DNA of 50,842 bases from a virus (lineage: Duplodnaviria; Caudoviricetes): the IMG/VR virus record IMGVR_UViG_3300043414_001004, positions 1-50,842 of that record. One strand, 5' to 3'. Position 1 is the stretch's first letter; each line of letters begins with the position of its first letter. The position numbers and the translations under genes are program-made. The notes under the pieces are model-generated. The model did not search any database. It was not told where the DNA came from and worked only from the letters and a program-made list of their open reading frames with translations. This document shows positions 1,635-34,000 of this stretch, one piece after another.

Positions 1635-3602
1635 TTAGCGAGGGGGAACTGTGGCAAGTTTTGTACCGTTGAAAAGTACTTCTGTGCCTGGCGCATATTT
1701 TAGAAGGTCTTCTTCCTTTGTTACAACCGGAGGAAGCCCAAGGTTGTTGTACGCTTGAGAGAACTCCGCATATTTTTGACGTGCTTTGCCCTTATCCGCA
1801 GACGACAAGCCAGAATTATCTGCACCCTGCTTTTGATACTCGGACATTGCGGAGCGGAGAGTTTGGCCTATCGTAATAAGGTCGGAACCGTATGCCTCAG
1901 GGCTTATCAGGGCACTTGGCTTCATCTTGGTTATGTTCTGTAACCGCTCCTGCTCTCTAATACTGCCTGCAGTACTTTTAAGCAAAGCGTCAATCATGCG
2001 CTCGGCCTGTTGTGTAGCTGCGCCGCGCGCTATGCGAACGTCGGGGTACTGGCCTCCAGTAAATGGGATGCCTGAAACAACGTCTTTTCCGGCGTTTATT
2101 GGGCCAGCAATTTTGAACCGGTCTTTCCACAAAGAAATTACAGGACTGGCCGCTGCTTCAGCCTCAGCTGGCTGACCCGACTGACCCGGCTGGCCCATCG
2201 GCATTGGCGGCACGCTTTGGTTGGAATTAGCGCCATCGCCCATTGGCATTGGCGGCACGCTACCGCTTGGGGCAGCGCCTCCAGGAGCAGCGCCGCCCAT
2301 CATGACCCGAGGAAGTTCTTTGCGCACCTCTCGGTACCCGCTGATCAGGTTCGTCACGGGGTCCATGATTGGCACCATAGTAGGCTGTGTCCACTTGTCC
2401 GCCGCCAACGACAAAATCCGCAGTTCCTCTGGCGTAGCAGTGCCTTCTTGAGCTTTTGGACCAATGGTCGCAAACGCATTCATGAGGCGTCCGTCCAAGC
2501 TATTGCCAAACGGGTTGGTTGGTTGCCCACCAATCTTTTTGGCCTCAATTCTTGCCTGCGCACGCAGCACCTCATTGAGCAGACTTCCTTTGCGCTTTTC
2601 CAGCTCAGCGTTTTGCGCTGTGATTTTGTCAATGTCCTTCTCGCCCTGCTGCAATGCCAGGGTTTTGATCTGACGATCGATCTGGCTGATCTGGTCAAGT
2701 TGCTTGCCCATGGCAGCGGGCAGTGTTCGGGTGGCTCCAGCCAGGCGCGACATGAAGCTGCCGCGCAACGGCTTGCCCGAATCATCCACGTTTGCGGCAA
2801 AGCCAAAGGCCCGTTGTCCGAGGTCAAACAGCATTTGCGCTTCAGCAGCGCCCCGGTCTGCGCCCAGCATCTTTTGGTACACCGGCAAGCGCGCGGCCAC
2901 AGCTTCTTCAATGCCAGGGGCCTGGGCAGCCTTGCGGTTAAGCAGGTCCATGGACGACTGCTGTGCAGCGGCCACCATCGCGGGTGGAAACATCATGGAC
3001 GGTTCAGAAGGTGCTTGTGCAACAGGGGTCACGCCTTCTTCATCTGACCCCTCTTGAAAATTTTGGACATAGCCTCCACGGGCCATTGCAATTGGAGGCT
3101 GATCGGAAGGGCCGCCAGCGCTACCAGCGCCACCCATGCCTGCCATCAGCCCGGCAATTCCGCCCTGTTGAGGGGGAGGAGGCATTCCTGCGCCAGGAGG
3201 CAGCGGGGGCATGCCAGGAGGAGGCATGCCAGGTGCGCCGCCCATCATTGGAGGCTGGGGACCCTCAGCCATGGGAGCTGACTGAGGCAGCGCGCCAATA
3301 CCGCCAGCTTGCTTGGCCAACACTGGCTGCAGCATGGCCAAAACGGACTCAGGTGTTTCAGTGGCAGCCTGGTAGCCCACCAGGTCTGCCAGCTCGTCTC
3401 GGCGCGCTTCAATAGAACGCATGTCGCCGCGCAAGTTGTTCATCAAGATTTCAGGCGTATCAGGGCGACGCTCCAACTTTGTTTCGGGGTCCTCGCCATC
3501 ATCGCCCTCGTCATCGCCCTCTTCGGACATGGAGTCCATGAGCCCTTGCATGATGCCGACGTTTTCAACATCGTCATCCATTGCCTTCATTTTCTTGTTC
3601 AT
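1635..3602 (-). CDS. putative internal virion/ejection protein
   Basis: 655 aa. Acidic N-terminus, Pro/Met/Gly-rich linkers, coiled coil, MARGG motif. Position after the tail nozzle gene. Confidence 0.6.
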   Translation of the reverse strand: MNKKMKAMDDDVENVGIMQGLMDSMSEEGDDEGDDGEDPETKLERRPDTPEILMNNLRGDMRSIEARRDELADLVGYQAATETPESVLAMLQPVLAKQAGGIGALPQSAPMAEGPQPPMMGGAPGMPPPGMPPLPPGAGMPPPPQQGGIAGLMAGMGGAGSAGGPSDQPPIAMARGGYVQNFQEGSDEEGVTPVAQAPSEPSMMFPPAMVAAAQQSSMDLLNRKAAQAPGIEEAVAARLPVYQKMLGADRGAAEAQMLFDLGQRAFGFAANVDDSGKPLRGSFMSRLAGATRTLPAAMGKQLDQISQIDRQIKTLALQQGEKDIDKITAQNAELEKRKGSLLNEVLRAQARIEAKKIGGQPTNPFGNSLDGRLMNAFATIGPKAQEGTATPEELRILSLAADKWTQPTMVPIMDPVTNLISGYREVRKELPRVMMGGAAPGGAAPSGSVPPMPMGDGANSNQSVPPMPMGQPGQSGQPAEAEAAASPVISLWKDRFKIAGPINAGKDVVSGIPFTGGQYPDVRIARGAATQQAERMIDALLKSTAGSIREQERLQNITKMKPSALISPEAYGSDLITIGQTLRSAMSEYQKQGADNSGLSSADKGKARQKYAEFSQAYNNLGLPPVVTKEEDLLKYAPGTEVLFNGTKLATVPPR

Positions 3603-3611
3603 ATTGACCTC

Positions 3612-5702
3612 TTAGAAAAGACCTGCTTTTTTGGCACCGGCAGCTGTGGACAGCGCCCCCAGGCCGATACCTATGGCTTGCTGAAACGGACTTGCCGATG
3701 GCTGGCTTTGAATAGCAGTTTGCATCTGTGAAGACGGTGCACCTTTGTAGATGTCCGACAAGAACGCGGCCTGCTGGTAAGGGGAGTACACCTGCTGCAG
3801 GTTCGTGGCCCGTTGAGCGTCGATCGCTTGCTGGTTGAGAGCCTGCTGAGCCTGGCCAGTGTTGTACAAGAAGTTGATGTCGCCCTGCTGGATACTCTGA
3901 GCCGTCTGGCCCAAGGCGGCCTGCTGCACGCCAAGTTGACCCAGTTGACCTGCCATTGCGCCCAAGCCCTGGGCTTGCTGCTGGCCAATGCCAAACTGCT
4001 GTCCAGCCAACTGCCCAATGCCCTGGCCCAGCTGTTGAAACTGCTGACCCTGCTGCCCATACAAAGTGCCCGCCGTTTGAGCGGCTTGATTGCGTGCCTG
4101 AGACTGCTGCATCAGCAAGTTGGAGATGTTCTGGTTGATGGCCGCCTCTTGGCCTGCCAACGCGCCGCCTTGAGCGCCCAGGTTGCCATACTGCTGGCTT
4201 GCCTGCAAGTACTGCCCTGCAGCCCCTTGACCGAGCTGAGCCTGCTGCACACCCAACTGACCAAGACCCTGGCCTGCAGCCACTTGGTTTTGGGCCAGGT
4301 TGCCGTACAGGCCCGCAGCGGCCTGGCCAAGCTGAGCCTGCTGCGCAGCTTGCGCGCCCACCTGTTGGCCAATGTTGGCCAACTGCCCTGCACCGGACTG
4401 GCCCAGTTGTGCACGCTGGGCCTCCAACGAGCCCAACTGCGTTCCCGCTTGAATACCCAACTGCCCTTGTTGAGCAGCCAACTGAGCGGCCTGCTGGCCG
4501 AGCCCACCTGCTTGAGAAGCCACACCAGCCAACTGAGAGCCAAGGGCACCCGCTGCCTGGCCGCCTTGAAGCTGACGCTGCTGCTGTTGCTCAAACGTGG
4601 CCATGGAGTTTGCTTGAGCCTGGTTGTAGCCCTGCGACAGGAGGTTGGCAATCGTTGCAGACTTCTGGTCCATCAAGTTGCGCTGCATCTCTGCCCGCTG
4701 AACGCCCTCGCGTTCACTTCCAAACGCGCCGGACTTCACTGCTTGCGCCGACAAGTTTTGACCAGCAATTGCACCTTGCCGGTCCATCTGCTTCATTGTC
4801 TCGTCAATGACTTGCTGACGATACGGGTCCATGAACGACTGGGCAGAGTTGGGGTTGTACCCCTGCATGCCGCCGCTCAGTGAGCCAAGGCCCTGGCTGA
4901 TGGCATTTTGTGCTTGGTAGAACCCGGGCTGGCGAGCCGCTTGAGCAGCCATGCCCACAGCTTGCTGGCCTTGTCCAACTCCGTACCCAATCAGCTGGTT
5001 GGCAGAGTCAAACTGGGGCTGTGCACCTTGAAGCTGGTCAGCAGCAATTCCCATCATCTGCTGGGAAGTGCCAAAGTCCGCGTTGCGGCTGTTCATCGCC
5101 ATCTGTTGGGCTTGGTTCAGCCCGCCAATGCCCAAGCCAATGTTTGTTGTGGCAGGATTCAAATTGGCTTGACTGGAGCCTGCCGCAAGGTTCTGGGCCG
5201 TGGACAACGCGCCAAGGCCTGACTGCAGGTCTTGACGAGCGCCAGCAAACTGGCCGGTGGTGTCCGACGCTGCTGCGCGCTGCGCGGCGCTGTCCAAATA
5301 CCCCAAGCCTTCATTGATCTGGCCAATGCCAGAAGTGGTGTTGGCGGCAGCTTGCCCGGCCTGGCGCATCGCGGCCTGTGCATCGGTAAACTGATTGCGG
5401 GTATCTGCGCCGCGCAAGATGTCGGCGGCCTCGCCAGTGGTTGTATACGCAGATTCCACCGCCCTGTTGGCGTTGGTCATATACGGGTTGTACGCACCGA
5501 TGCCCTGTTGAGTAGCGGCAGCCAGCGCGGCTTGCTGCGCGGGGGAAAACCCCGCTACTTGGTAGGCAGGCAGCTGGGAGCCAAGGGTAGGACTCCCGAC
5601 ATTAAAAGCCAGGTTTTCCGCCTGTTGCATCAAGCGCAGTTTTGCCGCCTCAATCTGAGGCGACTCCTGCATTATCTGTGCCGTTGTGGTTACATCTGCC
5701 AT
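3612..5702 (-). CDS. Gln/Gly/Ala-rich DNA transfer (ejection/pilot) protein
   Basis: 696 aa Q/G/A-rich helical repeats, SFMDPYRQQV and GAFGSER motifs, C-terminal Gly-rich hydrophobic tail. Typical of podovirus ejection proteins. Confidence 0.7.
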   Translation of the reverse strand: MADVTTTAQIMQESPQIEAAKLRLMQQAENLAFNVGSPTLGSQLPAYQVAGFSPAQQAALAAATQQGIGAYNPYMTNANRAVESAYTTTGEAADILRGADTRNQFTDAQAAMRQAGQAAANTTSGIGQINEGLGYLDSAAQRAAASDTTGQFAGARQDLQSGLGALSTAQNLAAGSSQANLNPATTNIGLGIGGLNQAQQMAMNSRNADFGTSQQMMGIAADQLQGAQPQFDSANQLIGYGVGQGQQAVGMAAQAARQPGFYQAQNAISQGLGSLSGGMQGYNPNSAQSFMDPYRQQVIDETMKQMDRQGAIAGQNLSAQAVKSGAFGSEREGVQRAEMQRNLMDQKSATIANLLSQGYNQAQANSMATFEQQQQRQLQGGQAAGALGSQLAGVASQAGGLGQQAAQLAAQQGQLGIQAGTQLGSLEAQRAQLGQSGAGQLANIGQQVGAQAAQQAQLGQAAAGLYGNLAQNQVAAGQGLGQLGVQQAQLGQGAAGQYLQASQQYGNLGAQGGALAGQEAAINQNISNLLMQQSQARNQAAQTAGTLYGQQGQQFQQLGQGIGQLAGQQFGIGQQQAQGLGAMAGQLGQLGVQQAALGQTAQSIQQGDINFLYNTGQAQQALNQQAIDAQRATNLQQVYSPYQQAAFLSDIYKGAPSSQMQTAIQSQPSASPFQQAIGIGLGALSTAAGAKKAGLF

Positions 5703-7748
5703 TTATTTCCCCTTTACAGGACCGCCTTCGAGCATCTTCATGAGCTTGTACATGCGCGCCGCACCCTTGCGACGACTTCCGCTGCCCGCATTGCGAACAG
5801 CCTTGGCGGTAAACACAAACTCCCCATCTGACAACATGGCCGGGATGTCGTCCGACGTTCCAGTTCCGGGGCCGTTGATAGGGCCGTTCTTGCGGGGGAA
5901 ATCCGTGGGCTCAGGGATACCGCCTTTGGCCAGCCGCTGGGGTGTTCCCTGCCCGTAAACCTGCGGCACACCGTACATGCCTGCGAGGTTGTACGGCTGC
6001 GCAACAACGCCCGTAGAGTTTGTAATGCCGGTAGGCCTCACAACCGACGGGGCTGTTTGCATGGGAAGAGTTGCGGTGTAGTCCGTGCTCACAATTGGGT
6101 TGTAAGGGGTAAATTGGGAAGTTCCCAAACCATAGCCACCCTCTTTGATGAACTTGTCGCGTTCCTGGCCTAGTCGAACACTTTCAAGGTAGCGTTCTTG
6201 TTCAGCTTTTGAGACCGGATCAAGATCGGCCTTAGGCTGCTTAAAGCCGCCTGCCAAAGCCGATACGCCCAGCCCCAAGCCGATTTTAGTCATTAAGCCC
6301 ATGCCTGGGGCTGCTGCAGCTGCCGTAGTTGCTGCGCTCGGAGCCGCAGCCCCAAGTGACGCCGCCGCCGTGCCGGGGGCCGCAGAGGGGCCAAACAGGC
6401 TTTCAAAGAACCCGGGGGACGATGCAGCAGGTGCCGCAGCGGCAGAGGAGGTTGCAGCAGGGGTCGAAGAACCCAGCATGCTCTCAAAAAAGCCCGGGGA
6501 AGATGAGGCGGCAGAATTCGGCGTGTTGTATGACATAGGCTGCATAGACTGCGTGGGCTGCATTGAAAGCATGCTGCGAGCCGTGCCATCGTATTGAAGA
6601 CCAGAATCTGAACCCCCTCCGCCCCCACTTGCCTCTGCGCCACCGCCCCCATCTGCTTGAGGCTGGGCATTTCCCTGCGAGCCACCGTTAAGGCCTGCCA
6701 GTGCAGCAGCCGAAGCACCGGAGGTAAGACCCATTTTCAGGGCGTCTGACGTGCTCATGCCGCCCAGCTTGCCAATGCCAGTACCAATCAGGCCTGTGGC
6801 CAGGCCCGTGTTCAGTGCTCCGCCAGCTGCGCCTGGGAGGTATTGACCAAGCGCACCAGTGGGGCTGACGCCCATGATCGTGCCTCCGCCGCCGACATAG
6901 CCCAGCGCGCCAGAGATCAAGGCCTCTTTGAGGGAGCCGCCTCCCAAAAGTGTTGTACCTGCGCCTGCCACGCCTGCCGCAGTGCCCATGGACAGGCCCA
7001 CGCCTGCTGGCCCGAGGACCGTGGCCAACGCAATAGTGCTCACCACCTTACCAATAGGGCTTGCGATCACCTTCTTGACGACATTGACGACGCCTTTAAC
7101 AACCGATGAAATCGCTTTTCCGATCGCCTTAAAAGGGTTGCTTTTGAACTCAGGCAGGCCTGTGTTTGGGTTGACTGTGCCCGCACCGCCACGGCTCTTG
7201 AGCATTGAGGCTTCTTCAGGGGTAATGTGTGCCAAGATGCTGTCGCCGCCCCGACCCCTAGAGGCAAGGTATTGACCCACATCGGCCAGGCCGCCTTGGG
7301 CCATGGCAATGGGTTGCAGACCTTCGACCACGGGGGACATGGCCATTGGGTCTTGGGCACCTTCCCCCTGCATCTGCTGCATTTCGTGAAGGACAGCCAG
7401 CATCGTGCCAATAAACACGGGGTCGTACTCTTCAGGCAGGTCGCCAGGATCAATTGCGCCCTGCTCCTGCATCAGCTTGAGCATGTTGCCGTAGTCCTCA
7501 GGGCGCTGGCTGATGTACTCAAAGACTTGAATCATCATGTCCAGCTGCTCAGGCGTCAGCTGGAGGTCACCGATGTTCTGGCGAATTGCCTCTTTTATTG
7601 CAACGTCCTCACCAGGGCTGACCATTCCGAGCGCCGTTTGTGCGGCATCGTATGAGTCAGCGCTTGAGACAGTCGGCTGCTCGCTCACAGGCTCTTCGCC
7701 TTGCATGGGCATGCCCTCGGGCAACGCCATGATTCCTTCATTCGCCAT
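5703..7748 (-). CDS. ejection protein with tape-measure-like C-terminal motif
   Basis: 681 aa. GRGGDSILAHITPEE...NPNTGLPEF block, Gly-zipper hydrophobic core, C-terminal GPGTGTSDDIPAMLSDGEFV resembling siphovirus tape-measure C-termini. Confidence 0.65.
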   Translation of the reverse strand: MANEGIMALPEGMPMQGEEPVSEQPTVSSADSYDAAQTALGMVSPGEDVAIKEAIRQNIGDLQLTPEQLDMMIQVFEYISQRPEDYGNMLKLMQEQGAIDPGDLPEEYDPVFIGTMLAVLHEMQQMQGEGAQDPMAMSPVVEGLQPIAMAQGGLADVGQYLASRGRGGDSILAHITPEEASMLKSRGGAGTVNPNTGLPEFKSNPFKAIGKAISSVVKGVVNVVKKVIASPIGKVVSTIALATVLGPAGVGLSMGTAAGVAGAGTTLLGGGSLKEALISGALGYVGGGGTIMGVSPTGALGQYLPGAAGGALNTGLATGLIGTGIGKLGGMSTSDALKMGLTSGASAAALAGLNGGSQGNAQPQADGGGGAEASGGGGGSDSGLQYDGTARSMLSMQPTQSMQPMSYNTPNSAASSSPGFFESMLGSSTPAATSSAAAAPAASSPGFFESLFGPSAAPGTAAASLGAAAPSAATTAAAAAPGMGLMTKIGLGLGVSALAGGFKQPKADLDPVSKAEQERYLESVRLGQERDKFIKEGGYGLGTSQFTPYNPIVSTDYTATLPMQTAPSVVRPTGITNSTGVVAQPYNLAGMYGVPQVYGQGTPQRLAKGGIPEPTDFPRKNGPINGPGTGTSDDIPAMLSDGEFVFTAKAVRNAGSGSRRKGAARMYKLMKMLEGGPVKGK

Positions 7749-7827
7749 GATAGTCCTTTCCAGTTTTTGCCAGTAGCCTCACTTGGGGCTGCGCGCCGGG
7801 AAAGGACGCGAGAATGGCAAGATTATC
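7749..7827 (-). promoter_or_regulatory. structured 5' leader of the ejection-protein operon, with anti-SD
   Basis: TTGCCA/TGGCAA outer stem with two inner hairpins. On the mRNA, GTCCTTTCC is exactly complementary to GGAAAGGAC at the RBS. A -10-like GATAAT lies just upstream. Confidence 0.5.
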
Positions 7828-7837
7828 CCTTAAATCT

Positions 7838-8176: not shown

Positions 8177-8352
8177 TATTTGCCAAAGAACCAAGATTGC
8201 GCCTGGTCCTTGTTCTCCGTGGTGGTTGGGGTGTAGGTATTGTTCAACTGCAGGATGATCTGCTCAAGCGATCGAACAAGCTGGTTAAACTGGCTCGGGT
8301 CGTATCCCGACTGGTTTGAGTTGGGCAAACGAACGTTGGTAATCTTGCTCAT
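8176..8352 (-). CDS. small conserved virion protein
   Basis: MSKITNVRLP...QFNQLVRSLEQIILQLN, 58 aa. ATGA overlap with the nozzle gene. Confidence 0.6.
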   Translation of the reverse strand: MSKITNVRLPNSNQSGYDPSQFNQLVRSLEQIILQLNNTYTPTTTENKDQAQSWFFGK

Positions 8353-10202
8353 CGAATGCCATCCGGTTGAATATCGACACGCATCGTGCCAAACCGCCAA
8401 TTGGTGTCCAGCTCGCTGCTCTCAATGCGCAGTTGAATTTGTCGCCCGCGCGCGCGCGTGTCCACCTTGTCGGTGCTTGGTGTGATGATGTACGGGTCCA
8501 AGGAGCTTGGGGTGGCGGTGGTTTGCGGGTACAGGCGCAAGAGCAGCCGCACTGTCAGGTCACCTACCTGGTTCTTGAAGTCTGGAATAAATCGCTTCAT
8601 GAAGAGCACTTGATCCCCATCACCAATGTCAAAGTAGCCGGAGTAAATGTGGGCTGCAATTGGCAAGCCGTCGTCATTCACGCCCGTCTCCTGGTTGTAC
8701 AGGATCGACCTTCCAGGGGTCAAGCCGTTGATCGGGGTAAGACTTTCCTGCGGGGCCTCATTGTCGTACTTTGTGGCCAATGGCCGATCAAAAGACCCGA
8801 TGTCTTGCCACGCAGTTCTTGCCATTGTGCCAATGGACCAGACGTTTTCCAGATAGTTGTATGTCACCGATCGGTTGACAAAGTCACTGTCCAGTGTTGC
8901 GTAGAACCACGTCACTTCGTTGAACTGGGTATTGATTGCCACGTTAACAGAAGAGGTCTGTCCAAGATTGAGGTTCTTGTACACGTAGTCCTGCACGGAT
9001 GACGGAATCTTTTTCACTGTACCGTCAAACACGAAAAAAGCGTCCTTGCTCATCCAGTACGCTACGCCATTGACGTCAGCGCATGCATGCGGGCCGATGA
9101 TTCCGCAGTTAGCACCCAGCTGCTGAAAGCCAAACGTGAAGGGCGGCCCGATGTACTGCTGCCCGTGAAGGGCCGTGTCAGTCCAGATCAAAATTTGGCC
9201 GCGTGACCGCAGTGCGGCAACAATCTCATTTCCGTCCGTGAGCCGTTGTCCGCCTGCCGTGTTGGTGGCTGTAGCAACAAAGTCTCCGATGTCCTCCTGG
9301 TCTGAATAGCGTACATACATTGGGTCCTGGCTGGTGGGGTCACCCAGAACTGACTCTGTTCCAAAACACACAAGGTGTCGATCAGGCGTGGAAAGCAGTG
9401 CAAACGCACTTTTTGTGGGGGCTCCCACAAGTGGCGTAGCACGGACCGTAAGGCCTGAATCGGGGGACCATTGAAAGATTCCTCCGTTAGCCAGCTGCAT
9501 GATGAGGTCTTGGCCGTAGTTGTCAAACTGCCAGACACGGGAGCCCAGTGAAAGTCCCAGAACTGACGCAGGACGAGGGGTATTCCATGCAAAAGAGTTC
9601 CATGAGCCGGTGTTCCAGCCATAGTCAAAGAAGCTTACGTCACTGCCGACGTTAATCTGGTACACGGCATTGGCCGATCCCGCAGCAGAGGCATTGGAGC
9701 TGGCGGGCATAGGGGACAAAATGGTGTACTGGCTTCCACTTAAGATTTCCTGAATCTCAAATTCCCCCGTAAGACTGGCGTTGGTAATCCCCCCAGGATT
9801 CCCAGTGACGGTGTTGTACGTCACAAAGTCCCCTACCACTGCCCCATGGGAAGCGTCATTGACTACGACCGTAGTAGAGCCATTGGTCGTGGTAAATGTG
9901 ACTGTGTCAGTGGTTCGAATGGGGGTAATGTCAGCCCACGTTCCACCATAGTAGACATAGACCTTGCGGCTTGTACCAATGACCAGATACGGAGTGCCAT
10001 CCAACGCGTTCCAGGAAAAGACCTCGGATGCACTTCCTACAAAATAGATTTGTGGGTTGTTGAAGGATTCCCACCCGCCAATCTTCTCCGGCAGGCCGTA
10101 GCGAAACCGCACAAAATCGCAGTCCACCCAGCCGCCTTCTGCACCATATTCGGTGTTTTGCTTGTCAATGCCCGGCTTGAGAAAAAGTCGAAGAAGTGCC
10201 AT
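8349..10202 (-). CDS. tail nozzle/DNA stabilisation protein (P22 gp10 or T7 gp12-like)
   Basis: 617 aa beta-rich protein with motifs GIDKQNT...W.DCD.VRFRYGLPEKIGGW and RARGRQIQLRIES...WRFGTMRVD. Typical size and position. Confidence 0.75.
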   Translation of the reverse strand: MALLRLFLKPGIDKQNTEYGAEGGWVDCDFVRFRYGLPEKIGGWESFNNPQIYFVGSASEVFSWNALDGTPYLVIGTSRKVYVYYGGTWADITPIRTTDTVTFTTTNGSTTVVVNDASHGAVVGDFVTYNTVTGNPGGITNASLTGEFEIQEILSGSQYTILSPMPASSNASAAGSANAVYQINVGSDVSFFDYGWNTGSWNSFAWNTPRPASVLGLSLGSRVWQFDNYGQDLIMQLANGGIFQWSPDSGLTVRATPLVGAPTKSAFALLSTPDRHLVCFGTESVLGDPTSQDPMYVRYSDQEDIGDFVATATNTAGGQRLTDGNEIVAALRSRGQILIWTDTALHGQQYIGPPFTFGFQQLGANCGIIGPHACADVNGVAYWMSKDAFFVFDGTVKKIPSSVQDYVYKNLNLGQTSSVNVAINTQFNEVTWFYATLDSDFVNRSVTYNYLENVWSIGTMARTAWQDIGSFDRPLATKYDNEAPQESLTPINGLTPGRSILYNQETGVNDDGLPIAAHIYSGYFDIGDGDQVLFMKRFIPDFKNQVGDLTVRLLLRLYPQTTATPSSLDPYIITPSTDKVDTRARGRQIQLRIESSELDTNWRFGTMRVDIQPDGIR

Positions 10203-12910: not shown

Positions 12911-14290
12911 TTAAAAAGGAACCGTGGTTATGGTCATAACACCCGTCGTAACCGTATTGCCTGGCGTAACACCCGCATCAGCGCCTGCTGTAGTACCGTT
13001 GGAGTTGGTAGTGTTAGTAAGGGCATCAGTTGGCGTAGTTCGACTGGTTGTAACGTAGTTGTACGTAAAACCGTCAACCGTGGCAGAGTTGCCGCTACCG
13101 CTCCCGTCACCAGGCATCTTCATGATCAGCGCTCTTTCCCCATTGACATGAGCGGTAGACCTAAAAGACACGTAAATGTTGTCAAAAGAGTCTACTGCAA
13201 TGCGCGGATCAGATACCGATTTGGTTGGAGATGTAACGCTCCGCTGCCATACAAGCGTGCCGCTGATGGTCCACTTATTGATCAGCACTTCCGTGCGGCC
13301 CCCGACAGCGCCTGTGGTATACCCAACAACATAAACATGCGTGTTGCTGGGGTCCATGCATAGAGCAGTGCCGACGGTAGTTAAGCCACCGGTATCAGTA
13401 AGAAATCCTTGCCACACATATCCACCTGCCGTCGTAAACTTCAATAAAACCTGGGTGGATTGGCTAGTAGTGCTCCCTGTTGTGTACGTATTTACCAGGT
13501 AATAAAGAACATCTGCAGTCTCTCCTTGGATAACAGCCACTCCGTCCTGCGCAGTATTTGCAGCGTTATTTTGAAAGGTGGCCCCTACTTTTGCCCCGTC
13601 TGCCTGAGCCAAGGTCCACAAGCATCCGTCAAAGCTTGAAGGAGTTACACGAGATGCAACGCAGTAATTAGTACTGTTGAGAAGTGCCACCCCATTACCG
13701 ATGGAACTAGAGGTGGTAGGGGTAGCCGTATCCCCAAGTAATCGGAGAAACTGGCGAGTTCCGCTGCTGTCGTACTTAGAAACAACAATATCGGTTCGGG
13801 TTGAATAAATATAGTTACCAGTACCTGCAGGGTAAATAGCGTTACTTGCGTCTGTTGTAACTCCGTTAAAAGTGCCTTTTTGGTTTATGTAGCGGTGCCA
13901 TTGAAAAGTTCCGCTGCTGTTAACTTTTAACAAATACGGAAAAGTGAGAGTGTTAAAATCGATAAAAATGCTTCCAGCTACTATGACGTTTCCTGAGCTA
14001 TCAACAGTTATAGCATTTGGATAAGAATAGTCATTGGAAGTGGTGGTTGCTACCTGCGTCTGCCAAGTAATTGCAGATAAGTCAAGCGGCAATTTTGCCA
14101 CTGTGACAGCGGACCTAGTGTTAATGGGGTTGCCAGTATCAACTGCTAGATATAACAGATCGTTTTTGATAACTATTTTAGGACTGGCATCTATCCTGAC
14201 GCGGGTATCTGCAATGTACGCCAAAAGTCCAACAGGAGGCCCACCGCCTCCACCAAAAGCGGCAAGCATGATGTTAAGTGTTCCGCTCAT
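12911..14290 (-). CDS. beta-propeller receptor-binding/fibre-tip protein
   Basis: 459 aa with repeated ITVDSSGNVIVAG / K.D.SGT..WQR blades and an N-terminal MSGTLNIMLAAFGGGGG tether. Lower GC than the flanks. Confidence 0.65.
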   Translation of the reverse strand: MSGTLNIMLAAFGGGGGPPVGLLAYIADTRVRIDASPKIVIKNDLLYLAVDTGNPINTRSAVTVAKLPLDLSAITWQTQVATTTSNDYSYPNAITVDSSGNVIVAGSIFIDFNTLTFPYLLKVNSSGTFQWHRYINQKGTFNGVTTDASNAIYPAGTGNYIYSTRTDIVVSKYDSSGTRQFLRLLGDTATPTTSSSIGNGVALLNSTNYCVASRVTPSSFDGCLWTLAQADGAKVGATFQNNAANTAQDGVAVIQGETADVLYYLVNTYTTGSTTSQSTQVLLKFTTAGGYVWQGFLTDTGGLTTVGTALCMDPSNTHVYVVGYTTGAVGGRTEVLINKWTISGTLVWQRSVTSPTKSVSDPRIAVDSFDNIYVSFRSTAHVNGERALIMKMPGDGSGSGNSATVDGFTYNYVTTSRTTPTDALTNTTNSNGTTAGADAGVTPGNTVTTGVMTITTVPF

Positions 14291-20081: not shown

Positions 20082-20519
20082 TTAGGCAATCCGGATAATC
20101 GCATTTGTCGCGTCGTTAGTGGGGAAAATGATGGTAAAGGTGCCGCCAGTAGAGCTTTTTGCACCACCAAAGTCCAGTACGCAGACGGTAGGTGTGCCTG
20201 CGGCCGAGCTGTTGTAAATCAGCGCACCAAACGCAGTGATGGTTGCACTTGTGAATGACAGGTCAGCAAAGTCCGTAAAGGCAGTTGTGCCGGTGGACGT
20301 GGGCGTGACGTTGGTCAAAATACCGCCACCTGCCGTGTAGGAACCTGAGTTAGGCACTTCGTTGGTGGCAGTGTACGCAGTGGTTGCGGCCGTAAAAGCC
20401 GCAGTGTTGTTGTACAACGCCAGTTTAAAAGTGTTGCCAGTGCTCGTCGTAAAGTTGTGCACTGCGCGCATCAGCTCAACTTTGAAGCTGGTGCACATAA
20501 AGTTACCTGTAAACGCCAT
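20082..20519 (-). CDS. conserved virion structural protein
   Basis: MAFTGNFMCTSFKVEL...FKLALY...VLDFGGAKSS...AIIRIA. Confidence 0.7.
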   Translation of the reverse strand: MAFTGNFMCTSFKVELMRAVHNFTTSTGNTFKLALYNNTAAFTAATTAYTATNEVPNSGSYTAGGGILTNVTPTSTGTTAFTDFADLSFTSATITAFGALIYNSSAAGTPTVCVLDFGGAKSSTGGTFTIIFPTNDATNAIIRIA

Positions 20520-22479: not shown

Positions 22480-22686
22480 TTAGCAGGCTGCCCCACCCTT
22501 TTTATAGGGCTTAGCCATCATCATGCCGCCACCCATCTTGCCCATAGGCTTTTTCTTGGCCATACCGCCAGTTTTCATCTTGGGGACGCCTGTGCTTTGA
22601 CTCGGCGCAGACATTACCTTGTTTTTTGCGCCGCTTTCAATAGCACCGCCGCCACGAGTGGCGCAACCCATACCTTTTCCAGCCAT
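22480..22686 (-). CDS. small Lys/Met/Gly-rich basic protein
   Basis: 68 aa with MKTGG and YKKGG motifs; GGAG RBS. Confidence 0.6.
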   Translation of the reverse strand: MAGKGMGCATRGGGAIESGAKNKVMSAPSQSTGVPKMKTGGMAKKKPMGKMGGGMMMAKPYKKGGAAC

Positions 22687-22687: not shown

Positions 22688-22870
22688 TCAAGCTCCTTTT
22701 TTCATTGCACGGCCCTTGACGTCGGCCGTTTTACGAGAAACAGCCCGACCCATCTTGTCCGAAGAGGACTTCATGGCCATGCCACCTTTTTTCATTTTGC
22801 CCATGCCATCGGCCGCAAAAGCAGGCACTGATTTGCCGTCTTTTTTGACCATTTTCATTGCTGCTTTCAT
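22688..22870 (-). CDS. small Lys/Met-rich basic protein
   Basis: 60 aa with VPAFAADG.GKMKKGG. Confidence 0.6.
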   Translation of the reverse strand: MKAAMKMVKKDGKSVPAFAADGMGKMKKGGMAMKSSSDKMGRAVSRKTADVKGRAMKKGA

Positions 22871-23131: not shown

Positions 23132-23437
23132 TTAGACGGGTGAGCCGCCTTCAAATATCAACGTGACACTCAGTACGTTAGCACTGAATTCCAGGTAGAC
23201 GCATTGAGTGAATAACAGGCCTAAATCAGGGATTATGATGTCGTACGCACCGGCCGCAGCCGGTGTGTAAATGGTGGTTTGGGCAACGCCCGCCCCTGTT
23301 GTATTATTGTGCAAATGAATCACAGAAGCGGTGTTATTACATGTGTAATAAATACCGATCACGCGCGTTCTTCCGGAGATGGCAAGGGCAGTCGTTGCCC
23401 CGGCCTTGGTTACCGTCCGTAAATTGCTGGCGCTCAT
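23132..23437 (-). CDS. small beta-rich virion protein
   Basis: 101 aa, GRTRVIGIYY...IIIPD.G.LF motif. Confidence 0.6.
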   Translation of the reverse strand: MSASNLRTVTKAGATTALAISGRTRVIGIYYTCNNTASVIHLHNNTTGAGVAQTTIYTPAAAGAYDIIIPDLGLLFTQCVYLEFSANVLSVTLIFEGGSPV

Positions 23438-24741: not shown

Positions 24742-25647
24742 TTAGGAGCCTGGCGAGCCGAAGATGCCGCGTGGGTCACTGAAGCCGAAGCTGTAACGTT
24801 CACGGGCCTTGTAGCGCACGTTGCCGGTGTCGAAGTCACCTTCAAAACCGGTCTTCAGGGACACGCGCTCGAACATTTTCATGCCGTTAGGAGCGTCTGT
24901 CTTGATGAAGAACGCATCTGGGTCGGTCAAGAAGTTGTTGACGGTGTAGCCTTGAGAGACCATGCCCATGTTCTTGATCGCGTTGATGTCGTTGTCCGCA
25001 GTGCCCACACGCAGTGTGGACTTGAGGATACGGTCAGCCGTGAACTGCAACTCTTTGGGGATGATCAGCTTCAAGCCCTGCACAGCGATCTTCAAACCGC
25101 GTTCATCGGTGAACGCTTGGATGTCGATCAGAGCTTGTTCCAAGGAGGTCTCGGACAAGTCAGCAGGTGTTGCCAATGTGTTGGACAGGTTAGGACCCGA
25201 CAGTGTGGGGTGCGCAGTAGAGCACAGAACCACGCCGTCGCCACCAATGGAGGTGGTGAAAGCGCCGTTCAGAACTGCTGCGGCCTTGATCTGCTTGGTC
25301 TGAGCCATCGAACGGGCCAGGGCCTTGGTGTAGCGGGCCGACAGACGGTCGTAGAGGTTGTCCTCAACGGCTTCTTCAGTCAGCGAGAACGCCAAAGCGA
25401 TGGTTTCGTGGGTGTAACGAGCTGTGTAGACTTCTTGTGCTTGGTCGTACGAAACGCCAGCGCCTTCGGTCTTCACAGGGGCTTCACCAAAACCAGATTC
25501 CATCACTTCCTCTTCGAACGCGCGGTCCGAAGATTCAACGGTGTAAATCTGAGTGTGTTGGTTCTCGTAGTTCTTGTACTCAAGGCCGAACAGGGCGTTG
25601 AGACCTGGCTCAAGTTCCTTGACCAGTTGTGCGCGTGAAATTGCCAT
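24742..25647 (-). CDS. major capsid protein
   Basis: MAISRAQLVKELEPGLNALFGLEY...DFDTGNVRYKARERYSFG.SDPRGIFGSPG. Strong codon bias; followed by a terminator. Confidence 0.92.
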   Translation of the reverse strand: MAISRAQLVKELEPGLNALFGLEYKNYENQHTQIYTVESSDRAFEEEVMESGFGEAPVKTEGAGVSYDQAQEVYTARYTHETIALAFSLTEEAVEDNLYDRLSARYTKALARSMAQTKQIKAAAVLNGAFTTSIGGDGVVLCSTAHPTLSGPNLSNTLATPADLSETSLEQALIDIQAFTDERGLKIAVQGLKLIIPKELQFTADRILKSTLRVGTADNDINAIKNMGMVSQGYTVNNFLTDPDAFFIKTDAPNGMKMFERVSLKTGFEGDFDTGNVRYKARERYSFGFSDPRGIFGSPGS

Positions 25648-26231: not shown

Positions 26232-26260
26232 TTGTCATTCCTTAAAAAAGTTGGATTCCG

Positions 26261-26740
26261 TCAGCCCTTGTTAAGGCCGCCGAAAGAGACGCGGGACTGG
26301 CGAGTCGGACGCTGAATAGTCATGCTGTTGTGAGCATTGGCCTTCATCAGTTCGTTATCAGCCGCCTGCAATTGGTCGTTCGCTCTGTCGCGGTAATACG
26401 CATTGCGCTCTGCAACTGTTTCTTCTGGAATACGGGCTAGAAGAAGACCTCCCACGCTGATCACGCCAGCATGTCGGCCATCGTCTACTGTTGGGACGTG
26501 GTAATCGGGGTACTCGTCCCCACGAACCAGTTCATACCCCTCGCGGAGCTTCCCTGAAATGTTCGTGCGGTCATCATAACCACCGGCTTCCGCTCGAATC
26601 CAACGGTGCTTGTATCCAGGAGGCGCAGGAGGCGCATCCAGTCGTGAAGGAGGTGCCCAAGGCTTGCGTCGCGCATCTTTCTCCCGGGATTCGGCCCCGC
26701 GAGAACTGCGATTGAGAGTGGGTAATTTGACGTCTGACAT
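26261..26740 (-). CDS. conserved head-assembly protein
   Basis: WAPPSRLDAPPAPPGYKHRWIR...LREGYELVR...GGLLLARIP. Confidence 0.7.
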   Translation of the reverse strand: MSDVKLPTLNRSSRGAESREKDARRKPWAPPSRLDAPPAPPGYKHRWIRAEAGGYDDRTNISGKLREGYELVRGDEYPDYHVPTVDDGRHAGVISVGGLLLARIPEETVAERNAYYRDRANDQLQAADNELMKANAHNSMTIQRPTRQSRVSFGGLNKG

Positions 26741-26744
26741 GGTT

Positions 26745-27671: not shown

Positions 27672-27683
27672 GCGTTTGCTCCT

Positions 27684-28154
27684 TTACATGTGCAGAATAT
27701 CTTCAGGACTGTTCACCACAGCCAACACCTCATCGTCGTTCAACAGACGAATCTCGCCACCGTCGATTGGGATGCGAGCACCGGCGTAGCGGCCAAAAAT
27801 GACCCAGTCGCCTTCCTTGCACCACGCGCCAGTGGGAAATTTTGATGGGTCGCCATAGGCCAGTTCGCCCACTCGCAGGACATAGCCGCACACGGTGCCA
27901 AGCTGCGTCTTGCGTTGGGTTTCTTCAGCCAGCACAATGCCGCCCTTGGACTTTTCAGCGCCACGGTAAGGCAAGATGGCGATACGCCAACCAGATGGTT
28001 TTGGAATGGTGTCAATGACCGCTTGGCTGAGCTTCTCGGGGTCAAACCCCAGCTCGGTGTAGGCGTCTTCAAGGGCGGGCGGCTTGTTGGCTGCCTCCTC
28101 GGCCCACTTGCGCTCTAGGGCGGTCATGTTTACTTCAGGGATTGCGGTTTCCAT
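27684..28154 (-). CDS. groES: co-chaperonin GroES (Cpn10)-like
   Basis: KPSGWRIAILP...KSKGGIVL...G.VL.VGE...WCKEGDWVIFGRYAG..I.IDG.E.RLLNDDEVLA. Confidence 0.85.
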   Translation of the reverse strand: METAIPEVNMTALERKWAEEAANKPPALEDAYTELGFDPEKLSQAVIDTIPKPSGWRIAILPYRGAEKSKGGIVLAEETQRKTQLGTVCGYVLRVGELAYGDPSKFPTGAWCKEGDWVIFGRYAGARIPIDGGEIRLLNDDEVLAVVNSPEDILHM

Positions 28155-28163
28155 AGGCTCCTC

Positions 28164-28370
28164 TCAGGTTGATAAATCGTCAAAGTCATCGTCCGTGATT
28201 TTCTTGAGTAACTCTTTCACGGAATCTTCGACCATTCTCAAACCCTCCAGGCGGCCCATCATGTAGCGGTAACGCTCCATGTCTGTGATGGTTCCATTCA
28301 GGACAATCTGTTTAGACTGTTCCTGAAGTTTCCTGATTTCCTTCAGAACTGCTTCTGCAAATTCAAGCAT
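28164..28370 (-). CDS. conserved small protein
   Basis: MLEFAE...DMERYRYMMGRLEGL. Confidence 0.65.
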   Translation of the reverse strand: MLEFAEAVLKEIRKLQEQSKQIVLNGTITDMERYRYMMGRLEGLRMVEDSVKELLKKITDDDFDDLST

Positions 28371-28429
28371 GGTGATTTCCATGAAAAGCAGGCGGCTCAA
28401 TGCCCCGCCCGATAGCATTCACTGACATT

Positions 28430-28702
28430 TCAGTATATCTTAACTGGACGGTTGCCGTCGCGCTTCTTGACAACCATTGCAGGGCCCTGCACGCCAGCCG
28501 GAGACTTGATCACGTCCCCGCCTTTGGCCATTTTCTTGGTCTTGCCTGCCTTGCTGTAGGCAATGGCAGCGGCCTGCTTGACGGCAGCCGCCTTGCTCTT
28601 GGGCTTGCTGGTGCCAATTGAGCCGCTGTCTTTGAAGTCGCCCACAAGCTCTCCAATGTTGCGGCTGATTGTCTTCTGACTGGAACCCTTTTTAAGCGGC
28701 AT
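28430..28702 (-). CDS. small basic protein
   Basis: MPLKKGSSQKTISRNIGEL...QAAAIAYSKAG...MAKGG; GGAGG RBS. Confidence 0.65.
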   Translation of the reverse strand: MPLKKGSSQKTISRNIGELVGDFKDSGSIGTSKPKSKAAAVKQAAAIAYSKAGKTKKMAKGGDVIKSPAGVQGPAMVVKKRDGNRPVKIY

Positions 28703-31028
28703 ATTGGCCTCCTGGTTGGTTAAGCTTGGTCTGCTGCAGTTGCAGCTTCTGGCGGTTGATCTGCATGGTCTCTTGCTGCTTCTGCTCGTCCAGCGCCAGA
28801 CGTTTCTGGTCAATGCCAATTTTGGCCTGGTCGTTTTGAGCGCGTTGCTGGATTTCAGTTTCCTTGAGCTTGATCAACGGATCGGGACCTTCGTCTCCGC
28901 CCGCCATCTCGTCCTGCAGCTTGCGCACTTCCTGCATGTAGACGGCAATCTTGATGGCAACCATGCCTTCTTTCTGGATAGCAGACACCATGCGATCGGG
29001 GTCCTTGCCGTAAGCCTTGAACAACTCCACTTCGACATCCTCTTCGGCCTTCAGGCGAACGTGGTCTAAGACGTGCTTTTGCAACTCGGTCGCGGCAAGC
29101 GGATTGGCCTGCAGGATTGGCGACAAGCCCATCATCAGGTGGACTGCAATGTGCGCGTCATGCTGTTGGCCAGCAAAGGCCTTGAGCTTCATGCCGTTCA
29201 ACACGTCGCTGTTCTCCGACGCAGGGTCGCGAGGCGAGTTGGTGTTTTGCGGGAGCAGCACGCCGTCAATGTCGCGGATATTGAGCGCCGCATACATGCG
29301 GTAGTAGGCCTCGTACATGTTGTGCATGTTCGGGGCGCTCTGGGCCAGCTGCAATTGCATCTGAGCGATCTGGATACGCTGGGCAGAGCTGAAGATGTTG
29401 GGGTCAGCAACAGGCTGCACGCTGACCATGGTGTCAAAGTCTGCCTTCTTGATCTTGCGGCTCGCTCCGGGTACCTCGTAGGGGTACTCGTCGGGCATGT
29501 ACTCGCCAAAGCCCTCGAAGAGCAGGCGAAACTCCAGCGTCTGTGCATAGTGCAGGCGCTTGTGGATGCTGGACATGACCATGGAGCCGCGCTCCAGCAG
29601 TGCCAGGGTGGTGCCCACCTGCGCGTACTGGTTGCCATCGCCAACCTGCATGTCGGCGGTGCTGGACAAGCGCTTTCCTGAGTCCACCAAGAATCCCATC
29701 AGCGCAAACAGCACCTGACTGGGTTCTTTGTACGGCAAAGGCATAAGCGAGCCTGCCAACTCTGCGCCACCGGCGTCAATGTCGCGCCATTCGCCTGGTT
29801 GGATGGGATTGGAGTCATCCGCGATCCGCGCGCCTTTGGCCTTGAAGCCTGCAGGCAGGTTGGACAGCGTACCGGCGTCGTTCAACTGGCGCAAAGCGCT
29901 TGTGGCCCCCTTGGCCAGGCCACCAATCAGGTGCACAAAGCCCAGGCCGTAAGCTCCAGGCCCTTCGACCAACACGTAGTGCACGTAATAGTTGCGACGC
30001 AGGCGTTTTTCGTCGTCTTCTTTCCAATTTCGGCGGATTCCGACCACTTTCAGGCTGTCTTCAATCAAAGTGACGACGTACGGGAGCTTGATGCCCGTTG
30101 GTTCGCCCTTTTCATCCTTGTCTTCAAAGCCTGGGATGTCCAAATCGACCAGTTGCTCAAGCAAAAACACCTCGCCAACGTCCGTGGTGGGCTGAATGCC
30201 GGTAACTTTGTCCACTGCGGCCTGAATTTGGCTTGGATCGCTGGGCGTGGCATACGTGTCGGCCACCACATCCAAGTATTCGCCTGCCAAAGCGCGCTTT
30301 TTGTACTCGTTGGAGTCCATTGCAATGCGGTGCGTGAGCCGTGGGCACTGGGACACGACGCTTGAGCCGTTGTACGGGATGTATACGTCGTCCGCAAGGC
30401 ACAACTTTGACACCATGCGGTTCAACTGATAGTCAAAATAGACCTTCTTAAAGGTCGAACCACCATAACCCGTGTAGAAAAGCTGCTGGTCAAACTCCGG
30501 CGTGTACTCTTCCATCACCGTGGTGAGCTGGTAGTTCATAAAGTCCTGCACGCGGCCTGCTTGCTGGAACTTTTCAACCGTTTCCTTGCCCATGATCTGG
30601 CTGCGCACTGGGCCGCCAGCAGGCATGAGCTCTTTGAATGCCTGCGCTTGGAACTGAATGATGGCCTCGGTCAGCATTGGGTGGGTCGCGCCCGACGCGC
30701 CACGGAAAGGCTTGGTGCGCTCTTCCATGCGAAAGCCCAAAAGGTCCAGGCCCTTGGCGTACATGGACTCCCACTCGGAGCGCGAGCCCTTGTCAGCCTC
30801 AAACAAGGCCGACACTTCAAGGCCCACGCTGACCAACTCGTCCGGATCAATGACATCGGCCAGGTTGGCGTAGAAGTCCACCTCTTCAGCATCGGCCTCG
30901 CCCATCTCAATGGTCGCGCCGCCGTCCTCTTCAATGATGATTTCAATGTCCGACTCAGGCTTTGGTATCCCGCCGCCAATCACCACATCAAGTGTGGGCA
31001 TCCGGTTCATTGCTTTTTCGATTGCCAT
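28692..31028 (-). CDS. portal protein
   Basis: 778 aa with HPMLTEAIIQFQAQA.KEL.PAGGPV, GLGFVHLIGGL and DAGTLSNLPAGFK. Between TerL and the scaffold. Confidence 0.9.
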   Translation of the reverse strand: MAIEKAMNRMPTLDVVIGGGIPKPESDIEIIIEEDGGATIEMGEADAEEVDFYANLADVIDPDELVSVGLEVSALFEADKGSRSEWESMYAKGLDLLGFRMEERTKPFRGASGATHPMLTEAIIQFQAQAFKELMPAGGPVRSQIMGKETVEKFQQAGRVQDFMNYQLTTVMEEYTPEFDQQLFYTGYGGSTFKKVYFDYQLNRMVSKLCLADDVYIPYNGSSVVSQCPRLTHRIAMDSNEYKKRALAGEYLDVVADTYATPSDPSQIQAAVDKVTGIQPTTDVGEVFLLEQLVDLDIPGFEDKDEKGEPTGIKLPYVVTLIEDSLKVVGIRRNWKEDDEKRLRRNYYVHYVLVEGPGAYGLGFVHLIGGLAKGATSALRQLNDAGTLSNLPAGFKAKGARIADDSNPIQPGEWRDIDAGGAELAGSLMPLPYKEPSQVLFALMGFLVDSGKRLSSTADMQVGDGNQYAQVGTTLALLERGSMVMSSIHKRLHYAQTLEFRLLFEGFGEYMPDEYPYEVPGASRKIKKADFDTMVSVQPVADPNIFSSAQRIQIAQMQLQLAQSAPNMHNMYEAYYRMYAALNIRDIDGVLLPQNTNSPRDPASENSDVLNGMKLKAFAGQQHDAHIAVHLMMGLSPILQANPLAATELQKHVLDHVRLKAEEDVEVELFKAYGKDPDRMVSAIQKEGMVAIKIAVYMQEVRKLQDEMAGGDEGPDPLIKLKETEIQQRAQNDQAKIGIDQKRLALDEQKQQETMQINRQKLQLQQTKLNQPGGQYAA

Positions 31029-31085
31029 GTGTGTTCCTTACGCTTGCAGCTGTGTATTATTCAACAAATCAACTATAGACGCAGC

Positions 31086-34000
31086 TTATTTTTTGGATTT
31101 CTTCGCCGCGCCGCCTTTGGCGTACTCGGGAGGCGGGGCCATACCCTTGTCAGCCTTGGCCTTGCGCGCGTCCATCTGCTCGCGGCTCATGATGTACGGC
31201 TTATCCTTGGTCTGCTTAGTCTGAGACTGCAGCGCCATGGCCTTGACCAGTTTTTCCAGCTCTGCCTGGCTCGTGGTCCGTGCTGCCAGTTCCGCGCCAA
31301 TGCGGTTATTGTGCACGTCATAGGGCAGATCATCACGGGGCTTGCCAATGCCAAAAGCCGAAAAGAAGGTCTGCGGGTTGCTGGTGTACTCATGGGCCTT
31401 GCCCAACAGCTCGGCGGCCTTGGGGCCGAACTTGCGCGCCACAATGCCAGCGGCCAACATGTGGCGCGCCGCGTCCCGCTGGTCATCCTGGCCAAGCTGG
31501 TCCGGGAACATACCGGCCGAGGCCTTGGTAGCGTAGCTGCTCACATCAAAAATGCTGGGCTCGGCAACCTCTTCCTTTGTCGCTTCTCCGCCCTCAGCAA
31601 AAGTCTTTTTGGCCAGGCTGTTTCGAGTCAGTGTTGGAGCCCCCAAGGTGGGAGCGCCCAGGGTGTTAGCCCGTAGGCCGAGGGCCTTGTTCTTGGCGGC
31701 TTCAATCTTGCGCTGGTACTGCGCAATAAACGCCTCCATCTGCGCGCGGGCTGAGTCTGTGTTCTTGGCCTCAGGGGGCGACGACGTCGTGTCCAAAGTC
31801 ATTTCTTTGGATGCGGCTATGGGAGCCAGCTTGAGGTTCATCTCCTTGGACGACTCTGCACCACCTGCGGGCTGCGAACTGCGCTTCATGTTCTGGCGAA
31901 CGGGCGACGGCTTGTTGCTTACCTTGGTCACATCGGTCAAATACTTCTGAGCCGTGCCCAGCGGGTCGACGTTGATCGGGTCGGTGTTTTCCTGCTGCAG
32001 ATACTCATTGACCAAAGCGCTGTTACTCAAAGCTTCCCCGCCTTCTTTAAAGAACTTGGGCATGGCGGGCGCTGCACTTAAGTTGCCAAAGCGATCCACT
32101 TGAGAGCCCAAGACATCCGACAGCTGGGAATTTGTTCCAGCAATCTGGGCCGTCAACTGGCCCTCTCGTATCTCGTCGATCGAGGGCATTGCTGCTGAAG
32201 CAACGGCGTTGCCCATGCGATCACGCGCAGTGCCAAAAGTGTCCGACAGCTTTTTGTAGCTCCCCAGCGTGTGGGGGTCCAAGCTGCCGCTGCCCATTTG
32301 AACCCTTGGAATATTTGGGGTAATGACGGGAGGCGTGACTGGTCGGTCATAAGTGGGCGGGTTGGTACCCATGGTCCCACGGCGCAGGGCTTCTGCTTCA
32401 AATGCATTTGTTCCAGGGCGCACGGCAACTCCTGGCCCCAGTGGGGCCGTAGCGGGTGGAATTGGTATCCCCGTGTAAGGGGGTGGAGGCTGGACGCGGC
32501 CAGTGCCGATTCTTGGGGAAGTGCCAAACAGGTTTGGGACCTCCGCAGTCCGTATAGGAATAAGCGATCCCCCACCTGGCGATTCTGCCACTGGAGGTAC
32601 AACGGGAGGTGTGACCACCGGGGGCTTGGGCGGCTCTACTACCGGAGGTTTGGGCGGCTCTACTACCGGAGGTACGACGGGAGGCGTGACCACCGGGGGC
32701 ACGACGGGAGGCTTTGGCGGCTCTACTACCGGAGGTACAACCGGGGGCACGACGGGAGGCGTGACCACCGGGGGCTTGGGCGGCTCTACTACCGGAGGTT
32801 TGACCACCGGGGGCACGACAGGCGTCACGCCAGGGGGCTTTGGCAAGGGCGCAATGGTTGTTGGAAAACCACCGGTATTGGTATCCCACTGAGGGGAGTC
32901 GACCATGTCGTTCCAGTCCTCTCCAACCTTTTCCCACTCTTTGCCGATGTTGTTCCAGTCGACGGTAAGGACATTTGGGCTTAAGGACTTTTCTCCCGTG
33001 TCGACGTTGCCAACGTTGCTCTGGTCGTAGGTAAGGACACTTGGGCCTTCAGACTTGTCCTGCGTGTCGACGTTGCCAATGTTATTCCAGTCGACCTCAA
33101 GGACGGGGGGACGAGCAAGAGTGAACGTGGGAACGGTATAGCTCGGAGTAAACGTGGGAACGGTGTAGCTTGGGGTAAACGTGGGAGCGCGATAAGTGGG
33201 CGCTGCGTCAACGTTGTCGTCCTCATTGTTGTAGGAATTGCCGATGTTGTCCCAGTCCACTTCAAGCACGGGAGCAGGTGGAGGGGGCGTGTACGCCCGT
33301 GGCGCAGGATTCTGCCTTTCGTATTGCAGCATCAGCCGGTCAAAGTTTGAAACGGGCGCTGTTTTTGATGGTGGACGATAAGGCTGCGCCGCTTTGGCCG
33401 CTGCGGCAGCTTTAGCCACTGCAGGTGCTGCTGCGGCCTTTTTGTTGGCCTCGAGCAGGTTGTAGTAGTCATCCCTTGCTTTTTGAGCGCCGGGAGACCA
33501 GTCAATGGCCGCAGGGCCCTTAGAGGCCGCAAGCGCTTTTTTGTCCTCTTCCGTCTGGTCAGCCCTGGCCTGTGCTTCATCCCCTATGGCCCTGTAGTAC
33601 GCGTCCCTCTCCTCTTGAGCGTTAGACGACCAGTCAACAGCCGCAGGACCCTTAGACGCAGCAAGCGCTTTTTTGTTTGCCGCTACCCGATCAGCTGCCT
33701 CTTTCTCGATGGCGTCGACCGCCGCGTAGTAGGCAGCTCGTTCTTCTGGGGCGTTAGAGGACCAGTTTACAGAGCCGGGGCCCTTAGACGCAGCAAGCGC
33801 TTTTTTGTTTGCCGCCGCTTCGTCCGCCTTTTGATCTTCGATGTCCTGCAAGGCCTGGAGGTACTTAGCACGTTCCTCCGGTGCGTTAGACGACCAGTCG
33901 ATGGCCGCAGGCCCCTTAGAGGCTGCAAGCGCTTTTTTGTTTGCCGCCGCCTGATCCGCCGCTTCCTTTTCAATGGCGTCGACCGCCGCGTAATAGGCGG

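Follow-up and report, generated by a model that had tools for sequence, protein, structure and literature searches.

The 50,842-base window analysed here, from the virus record IMGVR_UViG_3300043414_001004 (Caudoviricetes), encodes a short amino acid motif that recurs in six unrelated proteins; these are probably virion cargo, to judge from gene position and from the domains of their relatives. The consensus drawn from those relatives reads [MFYL]-[AK]-x-G-G-x-[VA]. Three features speak for a phage-wide signal limited to probable cargo: the protein classes in which the motif occurs, its position close to termini or module junctions, and its recurrence in lambda gpH. This signal is real, lineage-wide and of an undescribed variant, and a literature search, in which subscription journals were mostly uncovered, returned no description of it. 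An earlier note on this DNA had offered an address tag or a cleavage site as alternatives; the cargo signal was borne out, but the choice is probably not an either/or one. On balance, we consider it somewhat probable that the motif serves as a recognition tag, docking cargo as the virion assembles and being cut afterwards in the register X|[AK]-x-G-G.

The virion genes all lie on the minus strand, where the ten strict sites listed in that note were recovered, each in the open reading frame assigned to it. Two carriers are large probable ejection proteins. In the 655-residue one (1635..3602), given this role by its position after the nozzle gene, an acidic leader (residues 1-173, net charge -16) ends at MARGG (3086-3072, residues 173-177), beyond which lies a degenerate second site, FQEGS (3045..3059, residues 182-186), kept in relatives as F-x-x-G-S. 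The 681-residue one (5703..7748) comprises an acidic leader (net -22), MAQGG (7304-7290, residues 149-153), a module here called A, a Gly-rich hydrophobic middle, LAKGG (5933-5919, residues 606-610), a module B and a degenerate trailing motif, MLEGG (5735-5721, residues 672-676). In both proteins the leader up to the first motif is strongly acidic and the sequence after it near neutral. Two tiny basic proteins follow, one of 68 residues (22480..22686, isoelectric point 10.4) with MKTGG (22578-22564) and YKKGG (22506-22492), the other of 60 residues (22688..22870, isoelectric point 10.7) with MKKGG (22795-22781); such proteins are essentially arrays of 1-4 motifs in Lys/Met/Gly linkers, and relatives of the former carry 1-4 copies. 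Most of these relatives also end in a Cys 1-3 residues past the last motif (GGAAC, GGMACD), many with a second Cys near the N terminus. A small basic protein of 90 residues (28430..28702), with a phrog_2423 front and a gene overlapping the end of the portal gene, carries MAKGG (28531-28517). Last, a mosaic 1429-residue protein in the variable slot between terminase and portal (31086..35375) holds FKEGG (32051-32037), FAEGG (31601-31587) and YAKGG (31124-31110), with DUF6973, the only domain detected in it, between the latter two. Its front 1000 residues consist of several repeat families (Asn/Gly/Tyr, P-D-R, about six 37-residue repeats and a Pro/Val run), to which other slot proteins offer few matches.

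The strict pattern matched 11 sites in the 41 reading frames of the window, against a mean of 3.2 in whole-protein shuffles (3 of 5000 reached 11) and 3.8 in local shuffles (7 of 5000); the pattern had been picked after the data were seen, and the relatives give the fair tests. A GG-preserving shuffle, which gave 295 of 5000, was set aside as faulty because the number of GG pairs had risen in it from 134 to 215. The eleventh match, LANGG in the nozzle (9480..9494), had escaped the earlier listing and is judged a chance match outside the system, since none of 69 nozzle homologues carries the motif. Conversely, MLEGG, listed there, falls outside the strict pattern, yet 22 of the 24 distinct module ends conserve it as xLEGG. 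From 183 sites in relatives we built a weight matrix, seeded with a similar pattern; it scored 12 matches in the window versus 2.5 in shuffled sequence, namely all 11 previously listed sites plus LQPGG in the terminase. A 278-site logo places the bulky residue three positions ahead of GG and displays no conserved Glu ahead of the site. An internal start codon at the motif Met was ruled out, since Phe, Tyr and Leu stand for Met in homologues.

We then compared 160 IMG/VR loci fetched by portal and nozzle, counting distinct homologues; these are best hits and mutually related, so the counts are not independent. All six classes kept the motif: it was present in 57/59 homologues of 5703..7748, 19/23 of 1635..3602, 34/35 of 31086..35375, 7/7 of 22480..22686, 17/18 of 22688..22870 and 22/34 of 28430..28702. 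The strict motif was absent from homologues of the capsid (0/32), scaffold (0/58), nozzle (0/69) and each adaptor (0/22), and rare in those of the portal (4/75) and terminase (1/33). Among GG sites in the relatives, 268 of 1364 in the six classes bore the motif prefix versus 9 of 1887 in other virion classes. Genome-wide, the weight matrix found enrichment in DSL-LC04 (16 matches vs 2.6 in shuffled sequence) and HTVC027P (9 vs 1.6), while the virion stretches of T7, P22 and HTVC010P had neither motif excess nor module.

Placement was best assessed in 36 distinct terminase-portal slot proteins of at least 150 residues, which fall into five coverage groups. These contain 94 motif sites versus 10.8 expected. 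A site falls within the first 45 residues in 24 of the 36 (4.4 expected) and within the last 25 in 12 (2.1 expected), and one protein opens with the motif at residue 1 of 1499. Ends of homology blocks lie near motifs in 51 of 197 cases versus 20.8 expected, an excess that arises partly because the motif itself lengthens a match, and block starts in 35 of 215 versus 23.2. Free motifs keep their sequence sharply where modules join and where the flanks are unrelated. The earlier statement that the motif always lies in low-complexity linkers goes too far, since in 5703..7748 both strict sites lead straight into conserved modules. Among the 30 slot proteins scanned for domains, 10 carry DUF6973, two LPD23, and one each ART-PolyVal, zeta-toxin-like, GNAT or PcfJ.

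Both modules of 5703..7748 are tied to the motif. Module A (7146..7289, residues ~154-201, behind MAQGG) is conserved and matches no Pfam or PHROG entry; it also stands behind a motif within a relative's slot protein (L013:1736-1966), which shows the two moving together as a unit. Module B (5724..5900, residues ~617-675, behind LAKGG), a candidate reader of the motif, is near-invariant among relatives and homologous to the C-terminal module of siphophage tape measures (JBD30 gp46, E 1e-13; Douge gp16, E 1e-29), matching lambda gpH through phrog_24; the motif given in the earlier note for gpH was indeed found, at 733 and 778. Tape measures carry the motif-module-motif arrangement up to six times per protein. 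The counterparts in JBD30 gp46 (residues 1022-1066, the 'hook' of PMC11445458), Douge gp16 and lambda gpH (733-782) share the flanking motifs; in the window, by contrast, the module stands at the end of an ejection protein in a phage with a short tail, and unrelated proteins carry free motifs. Among 1.84 billion representatives at 50% identity, 9,863 are related to module B at E<=0.001, and Pfam has no family for it; the system is thus widespread yet without a name. The module is present in DSL-LC04, HTVC023P, HTVC027P, HTVC103P, MinM2 and RW, and absent from the scanned stretches of CRP-902, QDWS535, T7, P22 and HTVC010P. In HTVC103P, a different podophage type, module B and several motifs occur in gp79 (L170:42570-43865), the gene directly after the portal.

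Two outside phages suggest where a cut would fall. T5 pb2 contains two AxGG sites in 1219 residues, one of which begins at A1128. A maturation cut after R1127 is described for it from proteomics and liquid chromatography-electrospray ionisation time-of-flight mass spectrometry (Linares et al. 2023), in a report that also models 42-43 C-terminal residues of pb2*, from T1085 (PMC10038345); the bond so reported lies just ahead of the Ala of A-E-G-G. R-A-x-G-G is conserved in 14 of 15 distinct T5-like segments, distant Vibrio phages included. Among 125 tape-measure module sites, the motif Ala is present in 86% and preceded by Arg in 8%; the weight matrix, trained on the podophage group, scores T5 at 0 since Arg stands ahead of Ala. 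The likeness consists of an ejected channel protein with a reported cut in the proposed register (PMC10038345). T5 offers one contested site in a single siphophage protein, for which the cited sections name no motif, versus ten sites in six podophage proteins of the window. The two cut sites proposed for pb2, R1127 and V1148, enclose the stretch that starts at the motif and reaches its conserved Glu (L416:14227-14439).

The second case is crAss001 gp45 (PF25725; PDB 7QOG and related), a podovirus cargo protein with nine [AK]xGG sites and a motif-bracketed compact domain with a G-E-V core; residues 425-552 of the protein are seated at the wing of the portal, whereas 214-245 lie inside the tail (PMC10172136). 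Residue 425, where the portal-bound density starts, is the Ala of A-F-G-G (within N-A-F-G-G), which again points to a bond just ahead of Ala, and the tail-bound helix falls between motif sites at 207 and 261, across the portal from the bound domain. Of 24 crass sequences, 23 show a trailing [FY]-[ASD]-x-GG behind the domain; among the 23 complete at the front, the leading site has Ala in 15 and Ser in 5. AxGG motifs likewise bracket module B, which has a G-E-x-V core. The crAss001 domain differs in spanning ~130 residues versus 60, and gp45 is described as uncut and threaded through the portal in the passages on it (PMC10172136). The PF25725 crAss_CARG1 profile matched none of 86 module B sequences at E<=5, the gp45 control scoring 228 bits. 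For lambda gpH, whose cut site and catalyst are stated as unknown in a 2025 report (PMC12617516), we predict by analogy a cut at F733|A734, which would give 79.8 and 12.5 kDa versus gel values of ~78 and 14.

If this register holds in the window phage, assembly would begin with recognition of the motif, probably by module A or B, which would act close to the portal and most likely in oligomeric form, or else by a protease that escaped recognition; the bond just ahead of Ala/Lys would then be cut, leaving pieces that begin A/K-x-G-G. Such a cut would strip both ejection proteins of their acidic leaders (16 and 18 kDa), divide the mosaic slot protein into separate effectors and free modules for ejection. 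The motif, its class distribution, its placement and the tie to module B common with tape measures are observed here; the packaging of the motif proteins and the cut itself are what we infer. The register comes from two outside phages, one contested and one indirect, which is why we place the cut tag just on the probable side.

Several observations weigh against a cut tag specific to cargo. Two probable ejection classes mostly lack the motif (3612..5702, 0/43; 3..1625, 3/16), and two small non-cargo classes match the loose pattern (20082..20519, 9/23 homologues; 23132..23437, 8/22), neither being scored by the weight matrix in the window. By that matrix, the same-capsid relatives CRP-902, QDWS535, RW, MinM2 and HTVC023P have no genome-wide motif excess, and neither has HTVC103P; motif copies are still visible in the slot, small and ejection genes of all six. 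The T5 cut is contested, an earlier study having placed it at V1148 and R1127 being a trypsin site (Ayala et al., PMC11937520), and the computed mass of pb2 1-1148, 124.0 kDa, agrees with the older figure of 123.9 kDa. The crAss001 authors make no mention of cleavage in the passages on gp45 (PMC10172136), and a model start at A425 also fits a plain order-disorder edge. Moreover, the T5 and crAss segments share with module B the motif and downstream G..E-x-V layout only, at an HHalign probability of 0.1-4.5%. In lambda gpH, the Gly-rich stretch at 709-721, just upstream, fits the 14 kDa product at least as well (13.8-14.6). No recognisable protease was detected among the 50 window reading frames scanned, on a contig that is incomplete, with gene 3..1625 running off its end, and the cut in this phage group would follow by analogy with T5 and crAss001. 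A new N-terminal Ala offers no nucleophile for the usual self-cleavage chemistry. Finally, a cut alone would bring scant benefit to tiny proteins with tandem arrays or at sites 3-20 residues from a C terminus; terminal and tandem copies speak for a role of recognition beyond cutting.

An uncut address tag we think considerably less probable. The motif hairpin would plug into module A or B or the portal and recruit cargo to the procapsid, nothing being cut. The strong bias of sites to both termini, the motif at residue 1 of one slot protein and the 1-4 tandem copies in the tiny basic proteins, suiting avidity, all speak for this, and AlphaFold2 models the trailing motif, at low confidence, as a strand-turn-strand hairpin. 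Binding to the portal is proven for the crAss C1 domain (PMC10172136), and the ESM Atlas ranks that domain's family, PF25725, first among named families in likeness to module B (0.80), which is a lead only. A tag that is never cut would leave unexplained why the T5 cut coincides with A-E-G-G and why acidic leaders end exactly at the site, and the motif also occurs in tape measures, far from any portal. Predicted as a complex, module B and two copies of the portal (70-520) scored 0.00 with an uncertain partner fold, which weighs neither way.

Going beyond the cut tag in these podophages, an ancient X|A-x-G-G processing code could be common to the tape measures of siphophages (lambda, T5, mycobacteriophages), the cargo of crassviruses and, in abundant aquatic podophages, ejection and polyvalent cargo, with the 60-residue G-E-x-V module as reader, anchor and protease, so that any tagged gene would be packaged, trimmed and injected; we regard this as rather unlikely. 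Profile-profile comparisons (local and global, with reversed controls) between modules A and B, the crAss domain and the T5 segment gave nothing significant, and modules A and B are alike by eye alone. For module B and for a tape-measure-type module alike, AlphaFold2 gave weak monomer models (predicted template modelling scores 0.41 and 0.33); Foldseek found no match in the PDB, VIA-align reached at best Z 2.6 and BFVD returned unnamed phage proteins only, results with which a shared fold is compatible.

The repeated units of the tape measures fit a further, distinctly unlikely scheme, in which motif and module form one unit that oligomerises ejected proteins as an anchor or hook, free motifs being eroded copies that join by strand exchange and no dedicated reader or protease existing. 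Giant tape measures have 3-6 motif-module-motif units, the middle motif sometimes shared, Caulobacter phage RW has only the module-linked motif copy, and in JBD30 these residues are predicted to form a hook (PMC11445458). Eroded copies would hardly be so sharply conserved amid unrelated flanks, a conservation that argues for selection for recognition in trans. Reading of the motif by a host protease, or by GroEL through likeness to the GroES mobile-loop hairpin, is very improbable: a GroES gene lies near the portal in these phages and a 1973 reference title in PMC10038345 names host involvement in T5 tail protein cleavage, but the hosts are spread over several phyla, lambda gpH is cut after tail assembly, and the window's own GroES loop, K-S-K-G-G-I-V-L, is without the bulky residue and Ala. 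Loop mimicry was rejected as a poor fit.

Short signals on internal proteins that serve packaging and are then removed are known from the T4 capsid-targeting sequence with the gp21 prohead protease and from phiKZ/SPN3US head proteolysis; T4-type systems cut after Glu, by a recognisable prohead protease. The window motif differs from T4 capsid targeting in that its specificity lies past the bond, its sites are also internal and C-terminal, the Glu rule does not apply and no prohead protease was found. Adenovirus protease, African swine fever virus pS273R and C39 leaders have the bulky residue two places before GG and the cut after GG. The earlier note had drawn on these systems, in the wrong register: the bulky residue of the window motif lies one place farther from GG, and the outside data put the bond ahead of Ala. 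The slot proteins of relatives also resemble polyvalent proteins, with LPD23, ART-PolyVal, zeta-toxin-like and GNAT domains among them; processing of polyvalent proteins into domains by fused HEXXH metallopeptidases has been proposed (Iyer et al. 2017, PMC5512222), and the passages on them in that paper contain no linker motif of this type.

The motif yields exact, testable predictions for lambda gpH and T5 pb2, where the sites are, respectively, stated as unknown and disputed (PMC12617516, PMC11937520), and offers a simple account of crAss001 gp45 on both sides of the portal. It further points to a means by which HTVC023P-type phages could bring new effectors into the virion by exchange. Were the tag sufficient for loading, it would provide a portable handle to study phage protein delivery.

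The capsid of the window (24742..25647) is 91% identical to that of phage DSL-LC04 and 72% to that of Pelagibacter phage HTVC023P, which identifies an HTVC023P-type podophage. Its genes run in the order terminase (35417..36877), variable slot (31086..35375), portal (28692..31028), GroES, scaffold-position gene, capsid, two SU10-type adaptors, fibres, lysis genes, nozzle (8349..10202) and four large genes that, by their position past the nozzle, are probably ejection genes. With SU10-type adaptors, a nozzle, an HTVC023P-type capsid and no tail-tube or tail-chaperone match, this is not the setting of a long-tailed phage's ruler. The portal, a candidate docking surface by analogy with crAss001 (PMC10172136), gave no relative with a solved structure in a sequence search. 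GroES (27684..28154), between the portal and the scaffold-position gene, is present in every relative examined of this capsid type (DSL-LC04, HTVC023P, HTVC027P, CRP-902, MinM2, RW, QDWS535). The 159-residue head-module protein 26261..26740, a candidate head factor or protease, is highly conserved, with at least 8000 relatives; considered as reader or protease, it has these thousands of relatives, yet no named family or structure was found. The product of 3612..5702 is a Gln/Gly/Ala-rich probable ejection protein of 696 residues, with F-N-x-G-G near the N terminus in 7 of 43 homologues. The fibre-type proteins 14287..16047 and 16878..18737 have a similar N-terminal region and differing repeat arrays.

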